A program made the translations under genes and the position numbers. Below, piece after piece: positions 6,143 to 40,562 of a stretch of DNA of 47,744 nucleotides; the stretch's first letter is position 1, and each line of letters begins with the position of its first letter. The notes beneath the pieces were generated by a model. That model had not been told where the DNA came from. It saw nothing but the letters and a program-made list of their open reading frames with translations, and ran no database searches. The DNA is from an uncultured Chthonomonas sp. (lineage in GTDB: Bacteria > Armatimonadota > Fimbriimonadia > Fimbriimonadales > Fimbriimonadaceae): positions 1 to 47,744 of the forward strand of contig CAYRAX010000001.1 of NCBI GenBank assembly GCA_964422285.1. Direction: 5' to 3'.

Positions 6143-7459
6143 CTACTTCGTTTTTGATTGCGCGCGAACTTCGCGAATGACCGTGACCAATACTTCCATG
6201 CCTAGGCGCGGACCGGACGAAATTTCGCTCGCGATATCTTGGGCGAGCGCCGCAGTTTGCTGGTCGTTCAGATCATCAGGGCGAACGATCACGCGAAGCT
6301 CGCGACCCGATTGAATCGCGTATGCACGCTCGACTCCGGGGAACTTCAGCGCGATTTGCTCCAAGTCGCCCAGGCGGTTGGCGAAGTTCTCCAAATTTTC
6401 TTTTCGCGCGCCGGGCCGCGAAGCGCTGATCGCGTCGGCGACGATGATGATTCTGGCTTCGGGCGTCTCGGGCATGACGTCATAGTGGTGGGCGGCGACC
6501 GCGTGCAAGATTGCTCCATCGATGCGGTGCTCGGTGAGAAATCGCATGCCGGTTAAGGCGTGTGGCCCCTCGTAGGCCTCGCCCAGTCCTTTGCCAATGT
6601 CGTGCAGCAACCCGGCAGCCCTCGAAACGTGGGCATCGAACCCGAGTTCGGCCGCCAAATTTGCGGCAATCTGAGCTACCTCGACGCTGTGCGAAAGCAC
6701 GTTTTGGCCTACGCTGGAGCGAAACCGAAGCAGTCCAAGTTGTTGCAAAACCGCAGGCGCGAGTCCTTCGACCTTGGCTTCAGCCGTTGCTGTCCGGCCT
6801 GCCTCGGCGATTTCAGCGCGCATCGATTGCTGGCTCTGCGCGACGATTTCCTCGATTCGTGTGGGGTGAATTCGTCCATCGACGATCAGGTTCATGAGCG
6901 CAACGCGGGCGGTTTCGCGACGAAATGGATCGAAGCAAGAAATGAGCACCGAACCCGGCGTGGCGTCAAGCAGGAGTTCGGTCCCGGTTGCCTGCTCGAA
7001 GGCGCGAATATTGCGCCCCTCTCGTCCGACGATGCGGCCCTTGACGTCGTCGCTTGGCAGCGGCACGATCGCGGTTGTCGATTCGCTTATCGTCGTTACG
7101 TGGGTGCGCTCGACGGCGGCGAGGACGACATCCGCCGCGCGCTGATTGGCTTCGGTGAGAAGCATTTTTGCACGTCCAGTCAGCTCATTGGAGATCGAGC
7201 TTGTCGCTTGCTGGATCGCTTCATCGCGCGCCTGCTCGGCGGTCATGCCGCTAATCCGCTGCAATTCGGCGCATGCCTTTTCGTGGTTAGCCTTTGTGCT
7301 TGCCAGAAGCTGCTCGGCTTCTGCGCGCTGGAGGGTTGATCGCTCGGACTCGGCTCTCGCGGCCGCGAGTTGCGTTCGAAGTCGAGACTCTCTGACAAGA
7401 AAATATGCCGCCGTCGCCAGCGCGCCGGTCACCAAAGCCAGAATCGTTTCGGTCACCAC
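6143..7459 (-). CDS. rny: Ribonuclease Y
   Basis: N-terminal TM helix (ILALVTGALATAAYFLV), a coiled region, KH motif GREGRNIRAFE and HD motif LLHDIGK. GTG start overlaps the recX stop. Confidence 0.85.
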   Translation of the reverse strand: MVTETILALVTGALATAAYFLVRESRLRTQLAAARAESERSTLQRAEAEQLLASTKANHEKACAELQRISGMTAEQARDEAIQQATSSISNELTGRAKMLLTEANQRAADVVLAAVERTHVTTISESTTAIVPLPSDDVKGRIVGREGRNIRAFEQATGTELLLDATPGSVLISCFDPFRRETARVALMNLIVDGRIHPTRIEEIVAQSQQSMRAEIAEAGRTATAEAKVEGLAPAVLQQLGLLRFRSSVGQNVLSHSVEVAQIAANLAAELGFDAHVSRAAGLLHDIGKGLGEAYEGPHALTGMRFLTEHRIDGAILHAVAAHHYDVMPETPEARIIIVADAISASRPGARKENLENFANRLGDLEQIALKFPGVERAYAIQSGRELRVIVRPDDLNDQQTAALAQDIASEISSGPRLGMEVLVTVIREVRAQSKTK

Positions 7460-7899: not shown

Positions 7900-8960
7900 T
7901 CGTCGTTGTCAGCAATGGCGGCGGCAGCCTGGCCATTCACCACGGCGCTACCGCGTTCGGCCTGAACAGCGACGCGAATTTTGGAGTCAATTTCGCCCAG
8001 CACTTCGGGATGCTCATCGAGGTAGTTTCGAGCGTTATCGCGGCCTTGGCCCAGCCGGATATCGTTGAAATTGTAGTAGGTGCCCGCTTTGGTGACGATG
8101 TTTCGCGCTACCGCGTTATCCAAAACATCGCCGGATTTGCTGATGCCTTTTCCAAAGATGATGTCGAATTCGGCCAGTTTGAAGGGTGGCGCAACCTTGT
8201 TTTTGACGACTTTGACTTTGGTGCGCGCGCCGATTTGGTCGGTGCCGACCTTGATTGCTTCGGATCGTTTGACTTCCAATCGAACGCTGGCCCAGAACTT
8301 GAGCGCGCGGCCACCGGGAGTGGTCTCGGGGTTACCGTACATCACGCCGATTTTTTCGCGAAGTTGGTTGATGAAGATCACGACGGTATTGGATTTGTTG
8401 ATGCTGCCGCCGAGTTTTCGCAAAGCTTGACTCATCATTCGGGCCTGAATGCCCACGTGGCTGTCGCCCATTTCTCCTTCAATTTCTGCGCGAGGTACGA
8501 GCGCCGCAACCGAGTCGAGCACCACAACATCAACCGCACCAGAGCGAATGATTGCGTCCATGATCTCCAGCGCTTCTTCACCGGTCGTCGGCTGACTAAC
8601 ATAGAGGCGGTCGACATCTACACCCAGCGCGCGCGCGTATTCGATATCGAGCGCGTGCTCGGCATCAACGACCAGCGCTAGGCCACCCGACTTTTGGCAT
8701 TCGGCGACGCAGTGGAGCGCAAGCGTTGTTTTTCCGCTGGATTCCGCACCATAAATTTCGGTGATTCGTCCGCGCGGCAGGCCCCCGATTCCCAATGCCA
8801 TATCCAAGCTGAGCGAACCCGTGGAAACGGCTTCCACCAATTCTCGCTCGCCCGAACCCATGCGCATGATCGCCCCCTTGCCAAAGGCTTTTTCGATCTG
8901 CGACAAGGCGGTGTCAAGCGTTCTTTCTCGGTCAGCAACTGCAATCTTTTCGTTGGCCAC
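7896..8960 (-). CDS. recA: Recombinase RecA
   Basis: [23 protein letters not shown] Walker [11 protein letters not shown] and [32 protein letters not shown] lies 6 nt before the GTG start. Confidence 0.97.
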
Positions 8961-11246: not shown

Positions 11247-11657
11247 TCAATTAGGCTCGGGCTTGAAGAGCCAGAAGTGGGCGCCCTGGTTATCGCAGAT
11301 GAGCGCGATTCGGCCGACGGTGGGGATATCAAAAGCCGGTACGCGGCACGAGCCACCAGCGGCTTCGGCTTTAGCAACAGACGAATCCACGTCGTCCACA
11401 TTGATGTAGGTGGACCAATGCGGCGGAACCTCCGCCATCTCGCCGACGGTGGCCATGATGCCGCACATCGCGACTTCACCCTTGCAGAACATCGTGTAGG
11501 TTCCCATCGGGCCCATATCCATCGACTTGGTCGTCCAGCCAAGCACGCTTGTGTAAAACTCGATTGCCTTGTTGACATCGGGCACGTTTACTTCGTGCCA
11601 AGTGAAAGTTGAACCAACGGTGAGCAAAAATTCATTGATTTCTTGAGTTTCAGCCAT
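11247..11657 (-). CDS. VOC/glyoxalase-family protein
   Basis: 136-aa product from ATG 11657 (GGAGGACAATTT ATG). VOC-like pattern FTWHEVNVPDVNKAIEFYTSVLGW ... GRIALICDNQGAHFWLF. The longer 225-aa track ORF has no SD. Confidence 0.75.
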   Translation of the reverse strand: MAETQEINEFLLTVGSTFTWHEVNVPDVNKAIEFYTSVLGWTTKSMDMGPMGTYTMFCKGEVAMCGIMATVGEMAEVPPHWSTYINVDDVDSSVAKAEAAGGSCRVPAFDIPTVGRIALICDNQGAHFWLFKPEPN

Positions 11658-11764
11658 AAATTGTCCTCCGCGCGCACGTTGGCGCGCACACTCGCAATTA
11701 TACGGCGCGACAGCTCGCTGGAGATCCACAATTCGCGACAAAAGCAAATTTTGCCTAGGTCTAC

Positions 11765-11793
11765 TTGGAAAAATGAGCAGGCTATGATAGAAT
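11765..11793 (+). promoter_or_regulatory. Sigma70-like promoter for the 11832 gene
   Basis: TTGGAA, an exact 17-nt spacer, then TAGAAT. A 5'UTR hairpin GGAGCA-N6-TGCTCC (11800-11817) and SD GGAGAGG follow. Confidence 0.4.
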
Positions 11794-11831
11794 ATGGGCG
11801 GAGCATGATATTGCTCCTGCGGAGAGGATTT

Positions 11832-12812
11832 ATGAAGAGATTGTTGTTTGTCGCCCTCGCGGCTACCGCTTTTGTGTCGGCTCAAGCTTCGTTTGAGCTT
11901 GCCCTGGTGCTGGATGTCGATCACGCAAATAGCAGAGCGGACATAAAGCGATTCGATGTTAACACTGGTGCGTACTTAGGTAGTTTTGGCGGCGGATATA
12001 TAAACTATACTGCCAACAATTCAGTGCTTACCTTGGATCAGGCAAATAGCGCAGTTTATGTCACGCAATCAAGTGCCGCGGTACTGAAGTTCAATTACAA
12101 CACTGGTGAGTATTTAGGGGAATTTTACCCTGTAAACACAATGATCTTTGGGGTAAGTTTGCAATCGAATACTCTCATCGGAGCGTGGACAGGAAACACG
12201 TCTTTCTTAACGCGTTATTCCACCAGCGGAACTTACGAAGGATCCTATTATGGTGGATTCGGTACAGGGTTGCGAGGTGCAGTTACATACAATGGCATGT
12301 TGTTCGCGCCAGACTCTGTTAACAAGCAACTGCTCAAGTGGAACTATGGCGCCCTGGGTAGCACGGCTACCGTAGCAGGTGCGATGCCTGGTTGGAATAG
12401 CGGTTATGGGTGGGAAGTTGAGGCGATCTCAAATCGCTTGTATTGGTCCGATCAATACAACAATCTCATAAACGCTAATGTCAACGCATCTGGAGTGATT
12501 ACCGGTAATTCTCTGATAAGTTTTGCGGGCCAAGGTATCACGTTCTCCCAAGGTCTGGGCAAAGGGCACGGCGACATGCTTTATTTGGGTGGTACCGATG
12601 CCGGACGAGCAAACGGAAAAGTGTGCCGTTACAATTCGGCAACGGGCCAATTTCGCGGTACCTTTGGTGCGGGATACTTGCATGATCCTTCATCAATTGA
12701 TGTCGTTCTTGCGCCCGAGCCGAGCGTGTGGTTTGGCCTTGCGTTTGGCGTGGGCTTGGTTGCTAAGCGCCGCCGAGCATCGTTCCATGAGCGGTCAAAT
12801 TTAGGAGTTTAG
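11832..12812 (+). CDS. PEP-CTERM-anchored secreted repeat protein (beta-propeller-like)
   Basis: Signal peptide MKRLLFVALAATAFVSAQA. Recurring motif RFDVNTGAYLGSFG / KFNYNTGEYLGEFY / RYSTSGTYEGSYYG / RYNSATGQFRGTFG. C-terminal APEPS, a TM segment and a KRRR sorting signal. Confidence 0.8.
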   Translation: MKRLLFVALAATAFVSAQASFELALVLDVDHANSRADIKRFDVNTGAYLGSFGGGYINYTANNSVLTLDQANSAVYVTQSSAAVLKFNYNTGEYLGEFYPVNTMIFGVSLQSNTLIGAWTGNTSFLTRYSTSGTYEGSYYGGFGTGLRGAVTYNGMLFAPDSVNKQLLKWNYGALGSTATVAGAMPGWNSGYGWEVEAISNRLYWSDQYNNLINANVNASGVITGNSLISFAGQGITFSQGLGKGHGDMLYLGGTDAGRANGKVCRYNSATGQFRGTFGAGYLHDPSSIDVVLAPEPSVWFGLAFGVGLVAKRRRASFHERSNLGV

Positions 12813-12860: not shown

Positions 12861-14507
12861 TCAGTCCGAATACCAGTCGACATTGCTCTCAACCATTGAA
12901 CTGGCTAAAGGCGTGGTCGCTGGAAAGGATGTACCACGGTAGTTTGGCGTAGTTCCTCCGTTCGTGTTGTTGTAAAAAGTTGAGTATGCACTACCGCCTC
13001 CTGCTGCAACCTTCGCGCTGCTTGGCGCGACGAACTCCGTGTTTAGCACGTAGCACGTAGCAGGACTTGTCATGCCGCTACCGCCAATTTGAATCATTGC
13101 ACTTGTGCCAGTGCACTCGATCATGCACCCATCGAGCGTTAGTGACGCGTCATTCCAAGGGTTATTTATGATGATGGCGCGGGCGGCTGTATCTAGTTGC
13201 GTGATCGAGCATCCAACAAAGTACATGTCGCGAAAATACATTTGGGTTCCCGAATTTGCGTAAAATCGAATAGCGGCGGCGTTATCCGTTGTTGTGCAGT
13301 GCACGTTGCAGGCTAAGAACGTGTCTCCGACCGGAATACCTAGAGGTGCAGCAGGGTTCGGGTCATCCTGCGTCGTTTCGAAACGGATTCGATTGCAATA
13401 CACACCTTCAAAAGATGAGTCGCGGATGGCGGCAGCAAGGCGCAAGTCCGCGCAATTGATCGCGGAGTAGGTGACAAAGCTTGCTCCCCTGCGCCATTCG
13501 GTGTTCCCAACGGAAACCGGCCAGTCGCAAGCCGAAACGTTACTGACGCTGCCGTTGTAGCTGTCGCCGCCGTGAATGTCCACCGCCCCGTCCGTAGTTC
13601 CATCAGCAAAAAAGCCGTCGACAGTCCAAGCAGAAGTACCACTTTCTATGCTGACCCCATAGCGTGCATTGATCACCTTGGATTGCAGAACCTTGGCATT
13701 GATGCATCTATCCAGGTGGATCGAGTACGAAGAGCCGGTACCAGCACCGGTGACGAGGTCGCGGGCGGTGCAACGCGAGACTTCAACATCACGCGAATAG
13801 TTAATCGAGAATCCGGCGAGCCGCGATTTTTCGCCGGAGCAATCCTGAAGGGTGATGCCAGCGCAAAAGCCAGCGCGTAGCCAAGAGTTATAGCCATTTT
13901 CGGTGCGCCCAACGAATTTGAAACCTTTGATGAGCACGTTCTCAACCACGGAGACGTTGTTCGGGAGTAAGGACAGCCGTGGATCATAGTCGGTATCGGG
14001 TGCCGGGTAGCTTTGCGTGAGAGGTGCTGTGAAGGTGACGTTGCTTCCCGAAACCGATCTTACTTGAACTAATTCCCCGCCAATATCACGCGAAACCGTC
14101 GGGAAACTTGCATTAGTTTCTTTCTTCTTTGTATCTCTCAAGAAGTACCACTGGCCCGGCGTCGGTGCGGTGCCAGAAAAGGCCACGGTTTGATCCCCCG
14201 GCTCCGCGCCGTTGGATAGCGCGGCGGAGCCGGTGTCGTCAAGGTCGAACTCGGATGAGCCCACCTGAAGACTCCAATGTCCCAAGCCTGGACTAGTCCC
14301 TAACGTCAGGTCGCGCACGCTGCCGCCGCGCTGCAACCTCAATTGGGAATTTGGCCCAGGTTGAAATACGATGGGTAAAGGTAGGTTCAGATCATATCGG
14401 CCCGAGATTTTCGTCCGACAGTTCTCTCCGATGCTCCGAGCAATTCGGGACGACAAAACGGACCCGGAACTGCGCTTACGAGCACGAAGTCTGGTGCTAC
14501 GCAACAT
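12861..14507 (-). CDS. Module 1 protein C: right-handed parallel beta-helix protein, no signal peptide
   Basis: Periodic beta-helix rungs (ITLQDCSG, VEVSRCTARD, INAKVLQSKV ...) and the motif DIHGGDSYNG. Paralogue of 37055..38701. Its start overlaps the stop of protein B by 11 nt. Confidence 0.75.
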   Translation of the reverse strand: MLRSTRLRARKRSSGSVLSSRIARSIGENCRTKISGRYDLNLPLPIVFQPGPNSQLRLQRGGSVRDLTLGTSPGLGHWSLQVGSSEFDLDDTGSAALSNGAEPGDQTVAFSGTAPTPGQWYFLRDTKKKETNASFPTVSRDIGGELVQVRSVSGSNVTFTAPLTQSYPAPDTDYDPRLSLLPNNVSVVENVLIKGFKFVGRTENGYNSWLRAGFCAGITLQDCSGEKSRLAGFSINYSRDVEVSRCTARDLVTGAGTGSSYSIHLDRCINAKVLQSKVINARYGVSIESGTSAWTVDGFFADGTTDGAVDIHGGDSYNGSVSNVSACDWPVSVGNTEWRRGASFVTYSAINCADLRLAAAIRDSSFEGVYCNRIRFETTQDDPNPAAPLGIPVGDTFLACNVHCTTTDNAAAIRFYANSGTQMYFRDMYFVGCSITQLDTAARAIIINNPWNDASLTLDGCMIECTGTSAMIQIGGSGMTSPATCYVLNTEFVAPSSAKVAAGGGSAYSTFYNNTNGGTTPNYRGTSFPATTPLASSMVESNVDWYSD

Positions 14508-15285
14508 GTTTGCACCGTCGTAGCCGAATCACTGTCAGCGTACACCAGCCCCCGAGAAGCAATGTTGTGCTTGGCTCCGGCACAACAACACGTCGAACGC
14601 CGTCAACAAATACTCCGGGGGCGCCTTGAGCCAATGGATAAACCCCGGACAAGTCGTCTTGTATCTTGGACATAATGGTCATCGTACGCGCCGACTTTGA
14701 CGTTTCAAGTGGGTTTAGGTGGTGGAGTTGTAACAATAGATTATCGACTCTATAACTAACCAGCTTTGTTGAAAAATCAATGCGAACTTTAATGTTGGTC
14801 CATTGTCCAAGATGCAATGGTACATCGAAATTGGGGAGAGATCCTCCGTACCCAAAAGTCGTTACAACCTGACTTTGGAAGTCAACGATAACACCCAGTG
14901 CCGTGCTAAGAAAGGGGAAGCCAATGCTTACGCGCTGGCCCACAAAGTCTTCTTTCGCCACCAACAAGCTAATGGAGTACTCCACAGCAGGTATCTGCGG
15001 CAAATTGTCGTACGGTGCGTAAATCCCCGCCAAGTCACCGTTTGAAACTGACCGAATTTCCAGCATCTTGTCCCCCTCGTAAGGCACGACGCCGCGCGTA
15101 GTCGAACGAACCATCGGCGCCGGGTGCGGATAGGGCCAAAATGTCGTGTCGATTGTCCAGGGCCCCTTTGGGTACAAATAATCAGCTGAATCCGCCTTGT
15201 AGGATTCAAACCCATCAAAGAATGTCTGCGCGTTGGATGCGATTGCAAATAGGGAAAAGAGCGACAACAATATAAGCTTTTTCAC
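14497..15285 (-). CDS. Module 1 protein B: secreted PEP-CTERM protein, lectin/LamG-like jelly-roll suspected
   Basis: GTG start 8 nt after GAGGAG. Signal peptide MKKLILLSLFSLFAIASNAQ, and C-terminal VPEPSTTLLLGGWCTLTVIRLRR. Paralogue of 38715..39521. Confidence 0.8.
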   Translation of the reverse strand: MKKLILLSLFSLFAIASNAQTFFDGFESYKADSADYLYPKGPWTIDTTFWPYPHPAPMVRSTTRGVVPYEGDKMLEIRSVSNGDLAGIYAPYDNLPQIPAVEYSISLLVAKEDFVGQRVSIGFPFLSTALGVIVDFQSQVVTTFGYGGSLPNFDVPLHLGQWTNIKVRIDFSTKLVSYRVDNLLLQLHHLNPLETSKSARTMTIMSKIQDDLSGVYPLAQGAPGVFVDGVRRVVVPEPSTTLLLGGWCTLTVIRLRRCKHVA

Positions 15286-15297
15286 AGTAATTTCTCC

Positions 15298-16143
15298 TCA
15301 TTGATATCTTTGTAGGGCCCACGTGATGCTCGTGGCTTGAACGGCGTTTGCGCCACTTGGAACGGATAAGACTACAGAGTAGAGGCCCTGATCGAGTTCA
15401 ATGTGAGCGGTGAAGGTATTGCTGCCCGCATCAGTTAACGTGAACACTTCATCAATCGATGAGATTTGGGACGTGTACGTCACTGGCGTGGCATCCAGCG
15501 TCGTCGCCTTGCGATAAGCCTGAACGCGCATATTGCGAACCGAGTTGGTTGCGAACGTTTGCGTCCACTTCACAAATAGCGACGCCATTACCGACGAGGT
15601 GACGTCGATATCGAAGGCGGTCGCTGAACTCCCGACCGAAATGTTTGACACCGACGTCCCGGTCACCGGCGGGTCAGTGTAACCCGGGCCCAGCGACGGT
15701 TGCCATACACCTGAAGGCCCACCCAAGATGACCGGGCCAGGATTTAGCCGTAGGCCACCTTCCTTAGGGTCTTCAGTGGCGATCGGAACTGCGGGGCCGT
15801 TGCCATCAAGGAGCAGTAGCGGTCCGCCTATCAATACACCGCGAAACTCTGCACAGTCTGCCCATGCGTGATACGGAGTGCCGGGACTACCGTAGTGAGC
15901 GACCAAGTCGCCGATTGATTTAGCGGTTGTACTTGGCGCGAGGCTGTAAGTCACGACGTTATTATCGCCTAGCCGCCTTCCGTCCATTGCATAAAACGAT
16001 CCTATCAAACGACGCGGCGCGGCGTCGGTGGCTTTCAGCACAAAACCAAGAGGAGATCGGCGTTCAACGCCGTCGTACTGCTTGAGTACCGGAACGAGCA
16101 CCACTTCGAAGGAATCTGCGGTGGTAGTGTTTTCAATGTACAA
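15298..16143 (-). CDS. Module 1 protein A, long part (281 aa), unknown function
   Basis: The ORF begins at TTG with no SD, in the same frame as the upstream 67-aa ORF across a single TAA. Paralogue of 39532..40461 (AEFRGVLIGGP, NPGPVILGGP, FDIDVT..LFVKW, ELDQGLYSVV). Confidence 0.6.
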   Translation of the reverse strand: MYIENTTTADSFEVVLVPVLKQYDGVERRSPLGFVLKATDAAPRRLIGSFYAMDGRRLGDNNVVTYSLAPSTTAKSIGDLVAHYGSPGTPYHAWADCAEFRGVLIGGPLLLLDGNGPAVPIATEDPKEGGLRLNPGPVILGGPSGVWQPSLGPGYTDPPVTGTSVSNISVGSSATAFDIDVTSSVMASLFVKWTQTFATNSVRNMRVQAYRKATTLDATPVTYTSQISSIDEVFTLTDAGSNTFTAHIELDQGLYSVVLSVPSGANAVQATSITWALQRYQ

Positions 16144-16164
16144 TACGGTGATACCGGCGGGAAC

Positions 16165-16368
16165 TTAAAAATCTACCCCCCCCCCGACATTAAGCGTTGC
16201 CAACAATGCGCCAGAAGCGTCGGTCGAATAGATTTTGGCCTGCACTATGCCGAAGTTAATGCCCCGGTAGCTTGACCCCGGTCGAACAGCGACTTTGGTC
16301 GACTCGTTGGCTTGTACTAAGACTCCGTTACTGACAGGCCCTTGTTCAAACACTGTTGGAAATGGCAT
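16165..16368 (-). CDS. Module 1 protein A, SD-bearing N-terminal ORF (67 aa) ending just after the poly-G tract
   Basis: GGGAGG lies 10 nt before ATG 16368. Codons 61-63 are GGG GGG GGG inside the G10 run, and TAA follows four codons later. Confidence 0.5.
   Translation of the reverse strand: MPFPTVFEQGPVSNGVLVQANESTKVAVRPGSSYRGINFGIVQAKIYSTDASGALLATLNVGGGVDF
16176..16185 (-). repeat. Homopolymer: 10 C on plus strand = G10 in the minus-strand coding frame
   Basis: Counted directly: atcta-CCCCCCCCCC-gacat. Confidence 0.95.
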
Positions 16369-16405
16369 GTTGTCCTAACCTCCCTGAGGAATCGTCCTCG
16401 TTTTC

Positions 16406-16434
16406 ATTCTATAACACATTTTGAATTCATGCAA
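16406..16434 (-). promoter_or_regulatory. Sigma70-like promoter of module 1
   Basis: Minus strand reads TTGCAT, an exact 17-nt spacer, then TAGAAT. A 5'UTR hairpin GAGGA-N4-TCCTC and SD GGGAGG follow. Confidence 0.45.
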
Positions 16435-16532
16435 GTGTGCTTTGCGTGCGGGTGTACGATCAAGCAAAATTGCTGGTGGATCGAAATAGCCCAGCGGGAC
16501 GCACCAACCCAGCAAGGCGCAATAATGACACT

Positions 16533-17615
16533 ATGATCCACGCCGGGATACTCGCCGCACTGGTCGCGGTTGCGCCGCCAAATCATGTTCGCCTTGATCG
16601 CCAGCTTTTGCTGGGGGCCGACATCTCCTCGCTGAGCCAAATGGAGTCGGCGGGCGCAATCTATCGCGACGGAGGAATCGCAAAGCCGATGCTGCAAATG
16701 ATGAAGCAAAAAGGATGCAATCTCGCGCGAGTGCGGCTATGGGTTAGCCCTAACAAGTCGATCAAGGAAGTGCAGGACCTGGCGTACGTGATCGACTTGG
16801 GAAGGCGGATCAAGGCGAGCGGAATGCAATTCCTGCTCGATTTTCACTACTCTGATACTTGGGCAGACCCGGGAAAGCAATTCACGCCGAGCGCGTGGGC
16901 GAATCTCAGCGCTGCCCAATTGAACCAAAAAATCCACGATTACTCGCGCGATTGCATCCTTGCTCTCAAAGCCGCCGGTGCAATGCCAGACATCGTGCAG
17001 CCTGGCAACGAGATCACGAATGGCATGCTTTGGCCCACTGGCAAGCTGCCTTCGGGTGGCTGGCCCGTGCTCGGCGCTCTGCTCAAATCTGCCATCGCCG
17101 GAATCAAGGAAGCCGCGGGTGCATCAACCCCCAAAATCATGATCCACATCGACCGCGGCGGCGATTGGCCCGGTACCAAGTCGTTCTTCACCCAACTGGA
17201 AGCGCAGGCCGTGCCGTTCGACCTGATCGGACTCAGCTACTATCCCACTTATCACGGCCCGATCTCGGGGCTAGCAGCCTGTCTCAACGGCGCGGCGACC
17301 ACATTCCACAAGCCCATCATGGTGGTGGAGGCCGGGTACCCGTATGTCGCGTCGTGGTTTCCCGATTTCCATGGCGAATTTCCGGTGACTCCTGCGGGCC
17401 AAAAAGCCTATTTGCAGGCGGTTATCGATAAGGTCAAATCGACTCCTGGCAAGCTGGGAATAGGCGTCGTTTGGTGGGAACCAGGCTGGTATTCAGTGCA
17501 ATCGAACGGCGAGTGGTACGGCGGTTGGGGCCAGTGCATGGTGGACTCAAGCGGCAACGCTTTGCCGAGTTGGGATGCATTTGGCTCTGCTCGCGCAATT
17601 GCGGGAAAAGGCTAG
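16533..17615 (+). CDS. Arabinogalactan endo-beta-1,4-galactanase (GH53-like)
   Basis: GADISSL..ESAG, ARVRLWV, DFHYSDTWADPGKQ and QPGNEITNGMLWP match the GH53 TIM-barrel pattern. I placed the start at ATG 16533 (MIHAGILAALVAV); the track ORF starts at 16437. Confidence 0.8.
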   Translation: MIHAGILAALVAVAPPNHVRLDRQLLLGADISSLSQMESAGAIYRDGGIAKPMLQMMKQKGCNLARVRLWVSPNKSIKEVQDLAYVIDLGRRIKASGMQFLLDFHYSDTWADPGKQFTPSAWANLSAAQLNQKIHDYSRDCILALKAAGAMPDIVQPGNEITNGMLWPTGKLPSGGWPVLGALLKSAIAGIKEAAGASTPKIMIHIDRGGDWPGTKSFFTQLEAQAVPFDLIGLSYYPTYHGPISGLAACLNGAATTFHKPIMVVEAGYPYVASWFPDFHGEFPVTPAGQKAYLQAVIDKVKSTPGKLGIGVVWWEPGWYSVQSNGEWYGGWGQCMVDSSGNALPSWDAFGSARAIAGKG

Positions 17616-37054: not shown

Positions 37055-38701
37055 TTAGTTCGCGGCCCAGGTGCAGGTCACGTCGCTCGAGATCAGCGAC
37101 CTTGTTGGCGGTGGTGCGCTCGGGTTGGGGTCTCGCGTGTTGTTCGCCGTGCCACCGTTAGTTTTGTTGTAGAATGTGCCGCTCTCGGTTCCCGCAATCG
37201 CGATCTTCTTCGAAGAGCTTAACTTGAACGTCGAGCCCGAGGCAAATACAGTCGCATCAGCTCCACCAATTCGCATCATGTCGACTCCCGAGGCCGCTGT
37301 GAGCGTGCTTGCGGTGAACGTCATGTCGGAATTTTCCGCTACTACTGGAATGTCCATGAGGTAATGCCCGGCCACTGCCGATAGATGGCAAGAGTTGAAC
37401 ACAACGCCATCGAACTGATAGAACGAGGGTGATCCGGTCCCAAATGCGAGAGTATTATTGGATGAGGCAGTACACACGATGTCACAGTCGGTGAATGCGA
37501 CATCTTCCATGAAATATGCCATCGATGGCGACGTATCCTCGTATGAGTAAATCTCGATGTGGTCGATGCGACAAGACTCGATCGACGCTTCTTTCACTTG
37601 CCCCTGAACTGCCAGCTTGTAAATCGACGAATTGCTTATTGTTATTTTTGTTCCGCCCAATCGCCAAGAAGAGTTGCCGAATTGCAGGGATTGGCCCTCG
37701 GCACAGGCAACCATGTCCACGGTTCCATTGTAAGAGTCCCCTCCGTGAATGTCAAATACGGCGGCCGAGATAAGGCTGTTGCCTGCCGCGCCCGAAATAC
37801 TAAATCCGGTGCATCCTGCCTCCAATTGACAGGCGTACCGCGCGTCGCAAGCCGAAACTTGGTTGGCCTTCACGTTCGCACATTGTTGCAATTGCAACGA
37901 ATATCCGTTGCCCGACGAGCCAGACTTGCCGACTCCCATCGCGTAGTGATCGATGATTTCGACGTCTTTACAGTAGTGAATGGATGTCCCTGTACTCCAA
38001 CTGTTGCCAACCCGACAATTTTGCATTGAAAGGCCAGCGACAAAGCGAATGTTAAGCGCCGCTAACGTTCCTTTGTCGTTCGCCCGATCTCGGATTCCGG
38101 TCACTCGTAGGCCGCGAATGCCGATGTTTTGCAGCACTTTGCCGTTGGGCGAGTTGCTCAGGCGAGAGCCGGCGGGATAGTCGCGGCCGACGTTTTGGTA
38201 AAAAACAACGTTCCAGGTGCTGGCGTCGATTTGTTCGACGGTGTTAACCTGCACCAGTTCGCCGCCGATGGGGCGATAAGTGCTCGTGTTTTGGTAGCGT
38301 TCTTGCCGCTGAAAGTCAATGAGGAAATACCATTCCCCCGCCACCGGTGCCGAGCCAGTAACGTCCACAAAGTTGTCACCTTCGGCGATCGCGACTGACA
38401 GCACGGGTCCGCTTTCGTCTATGTCTTGAATGACGTCTCCAACATTGAGCGGAGCCGAAGCAGTGGGAGGAGTGTACGTAGAGTTCGCTTTCGCCCGTAT
38501 TGACGATCCACGCGCCCACGTGATGACCATGTTGGACAAGTCAACAGGTACAACAACGGTTCCGGCGGTGAAGCTGATCTCCGTGCATCTGACAAAGTAG
38601 GTCCCGCGAATGTTAAAGTACAGTGACGCTGCGCGCCCGTGCCGTGAGCGCTCGATGCGGGCATTCAAGACGCTCACGGAGCGTAACATAGAATTACGCA
38701 T
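37055..38701 (-). CDS. Module 2 protein C: right-handed parallel beta-helix protein, no signal peptide
   Basis: Paralogue of 12861..14507 (GGELVQV, DIHGGDSYNG, TFYNKTNGGT, GEWYFL). I set the start at ATG 38701 (GAAGG upstream); the track ORF start 38752 would overlap protein B by 38 nt. Confidence 0.75.
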   Translation of the reverse strand: MRNSMLRSVSVLNARIERSRHGRAASLYFNIRGTYFVRCTEISFTAGTVVVPVDLSNMVITWARGSSIRAKANSTYTPPTASAPLNVGDVIQDIDESGPVLSVAIAEGDNFVDVTGSAPVAGEWYFLIDFQRQERYQNTSTYRPIGGELVQVNTVEQIDASTWNVVFYQNVGRDYPAGSRLSNSPNGKVLQNIGIRGLRVTGIRDRANDKGTLAALNIRFVAGLSMQNCRVGNSWSTGTSIHYCKDVEIIDHYAMGVGKSGSSGNGYSLQLQQCANVKANQVSACDARYACQLEAGCTGFSISGAAGNSLISAAVFDIHGGDSYNGTVDMVACAEGQSLQFGNSSWRLGGTKITISNSSIYKLAVQGQVKEASIESCRIDHIEIYSYEDTSPSMAYFMEDVAFTDCDIVCTASSNNTLAFGTGSPSFYQFDGVVFNSCHLSAVAGHYLMDIPVVAENSDMTFTASTLTAASGVDMMRIGGADATVFASGSTFKLSSSKKIAIAGTESGTFYNKTNGGTANNTRDPNPSAPPPTRSLISSDVTCTWAAN

Positions 38702-38714
38702 GCGCTGCCTTCGG

Positions 38715-39521
38715 TTACGCACGCCGAGGTCTCCTTGAAAGTAATAGGGCACTGACTCCTAACGTAACTCCCACCGCACTACTCGGTTCTGGCACGGCCT
38801 GAAGAGTCACATCGTCCACGAGCATGCCTGGAATACCTTGGTCCACTGGGTATTCATCGGCGTAGTTGGCTGTTGTAGAAACTCCAAAACTAAATCTTTC
38901 CACTTTGTACGGAGGTGGAGTCTGCCCTGTGACAAAAGTGCGCGAATCCATCAGCTTCCAATTGTAATAAAGGTAGGTCTTTTTTGACGTCCAATCTATA
39001 CGAACTCTTAGCTCATTCCAAGCGTCCCGAGTCACAACTAATGCCTGCGGCTGCGCGCCGAGTCTTCTAAAAGTGTTGTTGAATAGGTCAATCTGCGCGA
39101 TACCATCTGCTGAATTCCCTCCGTTGAAGAGCGATGTGTGTAGGCCGAATGTCAGGATGGTTTTGACGTTGTAAGATTTCGGCACTGCAAATCGAAAAGC
39201 CATATCCACAACGGGATGCGAAATGCTGTTTGAGTTCAAACTGTGTCGCAGATTGCGATTGCCCTTGATCGCGCTCCCTCGAAAGTCGTACATCTGGTTG
39301 CCGCTGTAGGGCGAGACTCCATCTTTCGGCCCTTCGACGACGGTCGGAAATCGTTCGCCGGCGTCAAGGTCAATATCAAAGTCGCCGAATGAGTAAAGCG
39401 CATCCCAATCCTGGGTTCCGGGGCGATAAGATTCCCAATCGTCGTGGAACAGGGTTTGGGCGTTTGTGATCGACGCAACGGCAAGAGTGCAAAAAGCAAT
39501 CGAAATAGATTTGAATTTCAT
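38715..39521 (-). CDS. Module 2 protein B: secreted PEP-CTERM protein, lectin/LamG-like jelly-roll suspected
   Basis: ATG 39521 lies 5 nt after AAGGAGG. Signal peptide MKFKSISIAFCTLAVASITNAQ, and C-terminal VPEPSSAVGVTLGVSALLLSRRPRR. The track ORF start 39617 lies inside protein A. Confidence 0.8.
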   Translation of the reverse strand: MKFKSISIAFCTLAVASITNAQTLFHDDWESYRPGTQDWDALYSFGDFDIDLDAGERFPTVVEGPKDGVSPYSGNQMYDFRGSAIKGNRNLRHSLNSNSISHPVVDMAFRFAVPKSYNVKTILTFGLHTSLFNGGNSADGIAQIDLFNNTFRRLGAQPQALVVTRDAWNELRVRIDWTSKKTYLYYNWKLMDSRTFVTGQTPPPYKVERFSFGVSTTANYADEYPVDQGIPGMLVDDVTLQAVPEPSSAVGVTLGVSALLLSRRPRRA

Positions 39522-39531
39522 TGTGTCCTCC

Positions 39532-40461
39532 TTAAAGGAATCGTTGCAAGTAAACGTACACCGCGATTTCGTAAGTTTGGCTTGTTGAAAAATAGACTCG
39601 ATACTTTCCTGGATCAAGTTCTACATGATTAGCTGAAACATAAGGGCCAGCAAAAAAGAATGTTTCTTGGACATTCGCGTTTGCTGAAACAATCAAGGTT
39701 GGATCGTTCGTGTACGTGGTCGGGTATGCGGTTACGGTCAGGTCTCCATCGACTTCTCCATTTAGATTCCACCGCACGAACAGCCGAGTCAGTCCCGCTC
39801 CAGAAACGTCAATGTCCACGTACTGCGGCGTTTCATCGGTGATCACTGAATCCCAAATTTGTGCCGCCGGTTCGATGCATGTCCCCGTGTTGCGCGCCGG
39901 TTGCTCCACTCCGTTCGGGCCAAGAATCACCGGTCCTGGCTGGATTGTCAACCCGTAGCTTAGAGGACTGTAACCTGTTTCCGGAGTGCTCACGTTTGCT
40001 GCGGGCGATCCTTCCACGACAAGCATTGGGCCGCCTTGGAGTACACCGCGAAACTCCACCGCATCAACCCACATGCTGTCCGTGCCAAACAGGAGGTACC
40101 CTACTGTTTCGGGATCTGAAGAGGCACTAACCGAAACAACTGCATCGGAAGTCCCAGGGGGTATCAGTGCGATGCCACTAGCGCTGAAAAACGTGCCCAC
40201 AAGTGTCGCATTCTCCTGTGACGCCATTTGAATAACATAGGACATCGGCGACATTGCAATGCCGCTCCACAATGTGTTGATCAACGGCTCGACAGTGACG
40301 TGAGCATCGCCGGAAGATGAGAGCCAATACGTCGCTTGTGTCGCCGTTAGGTCGCCAGTTGTGCCCGGGTCCACGGCGAGAGTTGCCCCAATGCCGCTCG
40401 AATTGATAAACACGGCTAATTGATTGGAGCCAAGATTATGAAAACGATAACCTAGCCCCAC
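39532..40461 (-). CDS. Module 2 protein A, long part (309 aa as called), unknown function
   Basis: The called GTG start has no SD, and the frame stays open upstream through the poly-G tract. Paralogue of 15298..16143. Confidence 0.65.
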   Translation of the reverse strand: MGLGYRFHNLGSNQLAVFINSSGIGATLAVDPGTTGDLTATQATYWLSSSGDAHVTVEPLINTLWSGIAMSPMSYVIQMASQENATLVGTFFSASGIALIPPGTSDAVVSVSASSDPETVGYLLFGTDSMWVDAVEFRGVLQGGPMLVVEGSPAANVSTPETGYSPLSYGLTIQPGPVILGPNGVEQPARNTGTCIEPAAQIWDSVITDETPQYVDIDVSGAGLTRLFVRWNLNGEVDGDLTVTAYPTTYTNDPTLIVSANANVQETFFFAGPYVSANHVELDPGKYRVYFSTSQTYEIAVYVYLQRFL

Positions 40462-40562
40462 GGTAAAAGCAAATGGAACCCTAGCTGCCCCCCCCCAGTA
40501 ATTTTAACAGGTGTTCCGATAGGTTTTGACGTTTGCTGAACGTATGTAGACGGTATTGACAA
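40452..40562 (-). CDS. Module 2 SD-bearing short ORF (36 aa) running through the poly-G tract; probable true 5' end of protein A
   Basis: GGGAGG (40569-40574) lies 6 nt before TTG 40562. Translation: MSIPSTYVQQTSKPIGTPVKITGGG, then out-of-frame QLGFHLLLPWG and a stop. Confidence 0.45.
   Translation of the reverse strand: MSIPSTYVQQTSKPIGTPVKITGGGQLGFHLLLPWG
40488..40496 (-). repeat. Homopolymer: 9 C on plus strand = G9 on the minus coding strand
   Basis: Counted directly: agctg-CCCCCCCCC-agtaa. Confidence 0.95.

Follow-up and report, generated by a model that had tools for sequence, protein, structure and literature searches.

Is a gene interrupted by a stop codon just after a run of ten G residues a designed two-part gene, a decaying gene, or one state of a switch? 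This question is raised by a locus on contig CAYRAX010000001.1 of an uncultured Chthonomonas sp. (Fimbriimonadaceae, Armatimonadota; GenBank assembly GCA_964422285.1), positions 1 to 47,744 of which were analysed and are referred to below as the window. On its minus strand, open reading frames (ORFs) of 67 and 281 codons follow one another in the same frame; they belong to the gene termed here A1, which would be the first gene of a three-gene operon, A-B-C. A sequence-only reading had proposed a two-ORF design, in which the length of the G tract tunes reinitiation at the second ORF. The comparisons described here point elsewhere. With fairly high confidence, the poly-G tract of A1 is read as a simple-sequence contingency (slipped-strand) frame switch, of which the window carries an allele closed by a private nonsense change or by a consensus error.

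Anatomy of A1 and its reading frame

Direct reading of the sequence gave A1 as a single minus-strand frame, 16368-15298, with one internal stop only. The positions first assigned to the G10 tract, the Shine-Dalgarno (SD) sequence, the ATG, the TAA and the TTG, and their layout in one frame, all held. The features of the site are as follows.

16379..16384, minus strand: SD sequence GGGAGG of protein A copy 1 (direct reading)
16368-16366, minus strand: start codon ATG of A1 (direct reading)
16165..16368, minus strand: N-terminal 67 codons of A1 and the TAA, with the true gene start (alignments and direct reading)
16176..16185, minus strand: poly-G tract, G10 in the window (plus-strand C10 16176-16185; direct reading and homopolymer list)
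16165..16167, minus strand: private nonsense codon TAA (codon 68), with T in place of G at 16167 (comparison with relatives)
15298..16164, minus strand: rest of A1, 288 sense codons and the TGA stop (ORF list)
16406..16434, minus strand: candidate sigma-70-type promoter of module 1, TTGCAT (16434-16429), 17-nt spacer, TAGAAT (16411-16406) (by eye, tentative)
GGGVDFEVPAGITV: stretch of protein A across the switch site, named for peptide detection

The order on the minus strand is ATG, 61 codons, GTC-G10, TA GAT TTT TAA and then GTT CCC GCC GGT ATC ACC GTA TTG, the last codon being TTG 16143. The tract runs from the start of codon 62 to the first base of codon 65, and does not occupy codons 61-63 as had been read. 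The 281-codon ORF that begins at TTG 16143 lies in frame with ATG 16368, inside the remainder of A1, and direct reading found no SD sequence ahead of this TTG. The NCBI gene call over the same remainder is a protein of 268 amino acids (aa; P0009).

Tract lengths from G8 to G14 were simulated in the sequence context of the window, and no length yields a full-length frame. With G9 or G12 an immediate TAG is reached, with G8, G11 or G14 a TGA at 16135-16133, and with G10 or G13 the TAA, which agrees with the earlier statement that tract length is unable to clear the TAA block and that G9 leads to TAG and G11 to TGA. Two ways around the TAA were considered and rejected. After a +1 frameshift at TTT-TAA the +1 frame soon stops and never joins the long ORF (by eye), and reassignment of the stop codon is opposed by TAA terminating A2, the second copy of A in the window, and 6 of the 28 long frames in the window.

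A consensus promoter scan reported no minus-strand promoter upstream of A1, the candidate promoter of module 1 having been missed because its -35 hexamer matches at 3/6 positions. By eye, a like layout (TTGCTT-N17-TAATAT or TATAGT) precedes both A2 and the paralogue on contig L003.

That the 67-codon and 281-codon ORFs are parts of one protein, as had been proposed, is supported by alignments and by full-length relatives. A1 and A2 align from residue 1 in BLASTP, intact relatives of 355-357 aa exist (P0002, P0006 and P0011), and tblastn searches with P0006, P0030 and P0040 covered 16368-15301 without a change of frame, reading across the TAA. On these alignments the 67-codon ORF is the true N-terminus of protein A. 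Comparison with relatives at about 90% nucleotide identity (lineage II, below) gave 78 synonymous and 17 non-synonymous codon differences over the whole A1 frame, of which 13 and 4 respectively fall in codons 1-61 and 65 and 12 in the remainder after the tract. Judging by this pattern the whole A1 frame, including the part before the tract, is under purifying selection, and together with the intact alleles it marks A1 as a gene under selection rather than one in decay.

Tract length among relatives and across the A family

The DNA of cluster members was fetched and the A1 tract site tabulated, all lengths being those of assembly consensus sequences.

Window: G10 and TAA; closed at every length
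Lineage I, seven samples (L001, L021-L026), 97.6-99.3% nucleotide identity to the window: G11 and GAA; out of frame
Lineage II (L005-L009 and four places not shown), about 90% nucleotide identity: G13 and GAA; intact 357-aa protein
L028, lineage II, one substitution from the G13 clone: G14 and AGA (T-to-G change); in frame (P0011)
L027, lineage II, sister strain of the G13 clone: G11; out of frame

Four lengths (G10, G11, G13 and G14) were therefore found at one site between conserved flanks, as in a simple sequence repeat contingency gene. The G13 allele is one 100%-identical clone from at least nine runs (protein P0006), and L027 differs from it (compared with L005) by 8 substitutions in 1.7 kb and by two bases in the tract, bringing the total of G11 contigs to eight, seven of lineage I and L027. 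Between the window and lineage I the tract is the sole indel in more than 4 kb of aligned sequence. In the G11 contigs of lineage I the 67-aa ORF ends at a TGA and gene callers begin a 297-aa ORF at the ATG within AATGTCG; the 'hypothetical proteins' of 67, 268/281 and 297 aa in the databases are best annotated as fragments of one gene.

A T is present at position 16167 in the window alone, G being found in 15/15 related contigs that cover the site. The codon matching the TAA of the window is GAA (Glu) in these relatives and CAA in the 55%-identical homologue L002. When the simulation was repeated in the GAA context, G10 and G13 gave proteins of 356-357 aa, and G8, G9, G11, G12 and G14 all led to a stop 0-3 codons past the tract. 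Length therefore toggles between a full-length product and an early stop in the GAA context; in the window allele it does not, and this allele has no ON length because of the TAA.

The proposed mechanism is that slipped-strand mispairing during replication would alter the tract by one or more bases, at a rate that is likewise presumed. In the GAA context, G10 or G13 would join the ATG 16368 frame to the body of the gene (ON), and other lengths would stop translation 0-3 codons past the tract (OFF), a state that is probably polar on B and C. The window has an ON length, G10, but a G-to-T change nine bases downstream turns GAA (Glu68) into TAA, and the allele would be OFF at every tract length, either as a recently inactivated (locked-off) copy or through a consensus error.

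Homopolymer lengths were scanned over the 47.7 kb of the window and about 100 kb in all. Only two homopolymers of at least 8 nt occur in the window, C10 at 16176-16185 and C9 at 40488-40496, which extends to 8 nt the earlier remark that these are its only runs of 9 nt or more. The next-longest G or C runs in the window are one G6 and one C6. Under a first-order Markov model about 0.2 runs of at least 9 would be expected for G and C together, against the 2 observed, and far fewer such runs would be predicted from the survivor ratio, observed at about 0.1-0.2 per extra base. Both tracts are G on the coding strand and lie no further than codon 65 in two paralogous genes (codons 62-65 of A1 and 23-25 of A2). 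They are outliers to the run-length distribution of the window, and are beyond chance. In the 54 kb of L002, L003, L004, L012 and L013, all G/C runs of at least 7 are at the 5' ends of A-family genes.

The alignment register of the A family is set by a conserved motif, VRPGxxYRxxNxG, in protein alignments. This motif is upstream of the tract in A1 and downstream of it in A2, so that the tracts lie about 40 residues apart and are not at homologous positions, contrary to what had been suggested for the two copies. Site 1 is just upstream of the motif; site 2, which holds the A1 tract, is about 30 residues downstream of it, before VPAG. The members with a scored site 1, and L013, are listed here.

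39532..40562, minus strand: A2, paralogue of A1 (SD AGGGAGG 40575-40569, TTG 40562); site 1, G9 40496-40488, codons 23-25; OFF
L002: site 1, G14; ON
L003: site 1, G9; OFF
L012: site 1, G12; OFF
L013: no tract; intact

In A2, the SD sequence and TTG 40562 open a 36-codon ORF (40452-40562) that runs through the G9 into a TAG. With G9 this start is out of frame with the 309-aa ORF; G10 would fuse both into 343 aa. G9 is also present in L018, L019 and L020. More distant full-length relatives are known (P0024 and P0025), and tblastn of A2 with P0024 gave two frames, split at the tract. More than half of the differences between the window and L018, L019 and L020 (1-4 kb) fall within about 240 bp, 39613-39850, and include small indels; on sequence comparison this is a hypervariable segment in the predicted C-terminal beta domain of A2.

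Runs of three to six Gly residues occur at site 1 in P0030, P0036, P0041 and P0024 and at site 2 in P0040 and P0038, and other A-family members have gene calls that start right at site 1 or site 2. In L004 (8731-8790) a C7 stands instead of poly-G after a plausible start, MPVPPVIPSNYQ, and one added C would join this start to the gene. The ATG at 8731, from which this start is read as in the intact L013 protein, is one base out of frame; the gene caller used an upstream ATG at 8624, which gives an implausible N-terminus. The poly-G switches at the two sites appear to have arisen twice.

A block GTTCC-N10-ACCGT had been cited as marking a homologous tract position. It is indeed present in both copies, with 13/20 bases identical (by eye), but it does not mark such a position. 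In the motif register the VPFAFTV of A2 aligns to KVAVRPG of A1 and not to VPAGITV; A1-type members conserve VPAG at site 2, and members of the A2 subfamily conserve VPFAFT at site 1. Homology of the blocks was rejected on this register and on the unrelated upstream flanks, and the 13/20 match is left as chance or similar coding of beta strands. A recent micro-conversion between the tract sites is judged unlikely because the upstream flanks are unrelated and VPAG and VPFAFT are subfamily-specific.

Explanations other than a switch

Several observations weigh against the reading of the A1 tract as a contingency switch. Protein A had no match in Pfam, NCBIfam, PHROGs or PADLOC, nor in a sequence search of the PDB, and the AlphaFold model of P0002 is poor, with a predicted local distance difference test (pLDDT) score of 54 from an alignment of 6 sequences. 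Within-population heterogeneity and reversibility lie beyond consensus data of the kind tabulated, and the consensus lengths are rather stable, 7 lineage I contigs, about 2% divergent over the rest of their sequence, all having G11, and all four A2 sequences having G9. A block of about 580 bp around the A1 tract is near-identical among the lineage I contigs, and their shared G11 may reflect recent common ancestry, in which case they are not independent samples. Among the sequences tabulated, neither lineage I nor A2 itself had an ON allele. This stability could be due to a selected OFF state, to shared ancestry of the 580-bp block, or to expression by transcriptional or ribosomal slippage. Lastly, the two private changes of the window, a tract shorter by one base and a G to T that extends a T run, are 9 nt apart beside a homopolymer, and consensus errors cluster next to homopolymers.

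The last point also speaks in favour of an assembly or sequencing artefact, in which the true allele is G11 with GAA, like the other lineage I sequences, or G10 with GAA, and the error lies in the G10, in the T at 16167 or in both. These two are the sole window-private differences in the block of about 580 bp, and they consist of a 1-base homopolymer contraction and of TTTT becoming TTTTT; contigs of other assemblies also break here, L010 starting immediately behind the tract and L025 stopping a few bases beyond it. Against this, no other indel is seen over more than 4 kb compared with lineage I, the remaining differences being substitutions that are mostly synonymous within A1, and substitution errors in a consensus are rare. 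We consider an artefact unlikely, though it is the alternative that fares best, and an artefact in the window would leave the reading of the tract as a switch unchanged.

The substitutions among lineage I strains were also seen to lie in tight clusters between long identical stretches (for example at window 16583-16634 and 15688-15739), which suggests mosaic recombination among strains.

Somewhat less credible again is recoding, by RNA-polymerase slippage on the G run or by ribosomal +1/-1 slippage on GGG codons, with the OFF lengths as a normal leaky state. Recoding would fit the same out-of-frame length in 7/7 lineage I contigs and 4/4 A2 sequences, and the ending of both OFF frames 0-3 codons past the tract in the GAA context. 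It is opposed by the in-frame alleles, which encode intact proteins (G13, G14 with the T-to-G change, and G14 in L002), and by the direction of the correction, which varies: the G11 of A1 needs -1, and the G9 of A2, the G9 of L003 and the G12 of L012 need +1. No stimulatory element was seen, and none was searched for. It also counts against recoding that the documented cases of efficient transcriptional slippage are mainly on A/T runs. Recoding and mutational switching are compatible and not exclusive of one another.

A designed two-ORF gene, in which the 67-aa ORF always ends and tract length shifts its stop relative to TTG 16143 to tune reinitiation of the 281-aa ORF, is given very little credence. 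The window does have all three frames closing within about 17 codons of the tract, and the TTG stands 21 nt past the TAA. The TAA is, however, private, being missing from the 15/15 related contigs that cover the site (GAA) and from the 55% homologue L002 (CAA), and the internal stop is thus not conserved in orthologues; it is absent from relatives, and therefore there is no designed two-part gene. Relatives encode single-ORF proteins of 355-357 aa, and the N-termini of all paralogues are homologous to the 67 codons, which show purifying selection. TTG 16143 has no SD sequence, and translation from it would omit about 75 residues that make up most of the N-terminal beta domain in the low-confidence model. 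The sequence-only reading had itself named as refuting a TAA that is a strain-specific nonsense mutation and a tract absent from all orthologues: the TAA, found in the window only, is indeed strain-specific, but the tract is present and polymorphic in orthologues.

Plain decay, with the A family as pseudogenes frameshifted at accidental G runs and the TAA as one more lesion, can be put aside almost entirely. Many copies are out of frame (A1 of lineage I, A2, L003 and L012) and that of the window has a nonsense codon, but purifying selection is strong (78 synonymous against 17 non-synonymous differences), the disruptions occur at tracts only and always within about the first 65 codons, the tracts recur at two fixed sites in many paralogues with G/C runs of at least 7 otherwise absent from about 100 kb, and B and C downstream are intact.

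The A-B-C modules and a probable switch outside host-adapted pathogens

The contingency switch favoured here for A1 would stand at the front of module 1, and the window carries a second module of the same order. Besides A1 and A2 these consist of the following genes, signal peptides being judged by eye.

14497..15285, minus strand: B1, signal peptide and PEP-CTERM anchor; PEP-CTERM match under the Pfam cut-off
12861..14507, minus strand: C1, predicted right-handed beta-helix protein; weak Beta_helix match, start overlaps the end of B1
38715-39521, minus strand: B2, PEP-CTERM protein; above the TIGR02595 cut-off
37055-38752, minus strand: C2, beta-helix protein; profile match

The paralogues share 29% (A1/A2), 28.5% (B1/B2) and 30% (C1/C2) identity and are old. 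The A-B-C order is kept in L002, L003, L004 and L013. B2 scores 18.4 with TIGR02595 against a cut-off of 16; B1 scores 15.2 with the Pfam model against a cut-off of 20.7, and its VPEP, hydrophobic stretch and RLRR are visible by eye. Gene B has the signal peptide, C-terminal PEP motif, transmembrane helix and basic tail of a PEP-CTERM/exosortase cargo. B1 is 57% identical to the B of L021, though the neighbouring A proteins are 99% identical, and C1 is 87% identical to the C of lineage II, with the C of L021 at about 93% at the nucleotide level. Such variability of B would fit the replacement of a cassette, or strong selection for diversity in a predicted surface protein. Because of the PEP-CTERM on B and its hypervariability between strains, we infer a surface role for the operon, and a selective reason for OFF states is likewise presumed. 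These findings support the earlier view that the tract is a variable element, functional in appearance, at the 5' end of a gene in a surface operon.

In blastn, alignment of the window to lineages I and II breaks at 15028 and resumes at about 14284 and 14238 respectively. The nucleotide similarity to the 90%-identical lineage II starts at 16386, just upstream of the SD sequence of A. The gene upstream of A in the window and lineage I belongs to the GH53 family and is divergently oriented (window 16437-17615), and that in lineage II is co-directional and encodes 162 aa. The stretches concerned are given here.

Window 14238-15028, L021 3890-4666, L005 2261-3040: hypervariable stretch of B, alignment break
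Window 16386 upstream, L005 511-999, L021 1559-2641: compared upstream contexts of A

Protein A has no signal peptide. Its low-confidence model is all-beta, and Foldseek with this model returned generic beta-sandwich, carbohydrate-binding module (CBM), lectin and phage-spike matches at a template modelling (TM) score of about 0.2, which were treated as uninformative. The A family is small, with 28 clusters at 50% identity among 1.84 billion representative proteins, and a profile search of the genome contigs with the A-family alignment gave no match. A possible N-terminal motif shared by A (MPFPTVFEQGP) and C1 (LPLPIVFQPGP; window 14360-14390, C1 residues 42-52) was rejected as not significant (E = 0.85). 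The C1 call opens with 40 Arg/Ser-rich residues that overlap the tail of B1 and may be non-coding.

A further PEP-CTERM protein of 389 aa, above the TIGR02595 cut-off, is encoded at 11643-12812 on the plus strand and converges on the end of module 1. The chromosomal neighbours in the window include PriA, RNase Y, PcrA and menaquinone decarboxylase, the PcrA having 68% and 63% identity to metagenome-assembled genomes (MAGs) of Fimbriimonadaceae, from which the organism is assigned to Armatimonadota. The RNase Y ORF (6143-7459, minus strand, 438 aa) matches TIGR03319 from model position 110 of 514 only; either its N-terminal membrane segment is missing or its start is mis-set.

Poly-G/C contingency loci of Campylobacter jejuni, Neisseria meningitidis, Haemophilus influenzae and Helicobacter pylori switch by slipped-strand mispairing in intragenic homopolymers of surface-structure genes. 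The A family resembles them in having, near the 5' end of the coding sequence, a G/C homopolymer 9-14 bases long, whose length modulo 3 would set a full-length or truncated product, in the variation of tract length among close relatives, in its place in a predicted surface-component operon and in the several paralogous loci per genome. It differs from them in belonging to environmental Armatimonadota, in being uncharacterised and without a Pfam or NCBIfam model, and in that the switch of the window is disabled by a nonsense codon.

Premature-stop alleles of inlA co-exist in natural strains of Listeria monocytogenes. A general rule for homopolymers at 5' ends and the 5' poly(A) tract of inlA are described by Orsi et al. 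2010 (PMC2831843). The A tracts are like that of inlA in the position of the homopolymer near the 5' end, which allows efficient and reversible inactivation with a very short truncated product (PMC2831843), and unlike it in being poly(G), in a genome of 57% G+C that otherwise strongly avoids G/C runs. The literature on poly-G/C contingency loci also includes PMC8437040 and PMC5084427. In Mycobacterium tuberculosis, homopolymer indels are reported to act as reversible on/off variants, as inferred by population genomics (Proc Natl Acad Sci U S A 2023, PMC10334774). The two cases share homopolymer on/off variation outside the classical phase-varying mucosal pathogens, and they differ in organism and genes and in that the A tracts are long (9-14 bases) and common to a paralogous family at two alternative positions. 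Literature searches returned no relevant report of phase variation in Armatimonadota or tied to PEP-CTERM operons.

Work on contingency loci has, to our knowledge, dealt almost exclusively with pathogens adapted to a host. The same device would here be found in an environmental phylum of uncultured type, at the front of a surface operon and at two independent positions in an orphan gene family. On this reading the TAA of the window is an ordinary private lesion or error and not recoding, and the value of the locus rests in the family-wide poly-G switches, of which public metagenomes already hold ON and OFF alleles of A. These provide a functional handle on the unannotated A-B-C cassette, and an entry point to the question of why surfaces switch stochastically outside hosts, where phages, grazers or aggregation might be among the drivers. 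More speculatively, and with low confidence, A-B-C may be an unrecognised phase-variable surface module of Fimbriimonadia/Armatimonadota, with two independent poly-G origins, a fast-diversifying B and populations that are mostly OFF, in which the window allele would record selection against expression, for instance if the module serves as a receptor for phages or predators. If true, this would be a contingency system shaped by environmental enemies and not by host immunity.

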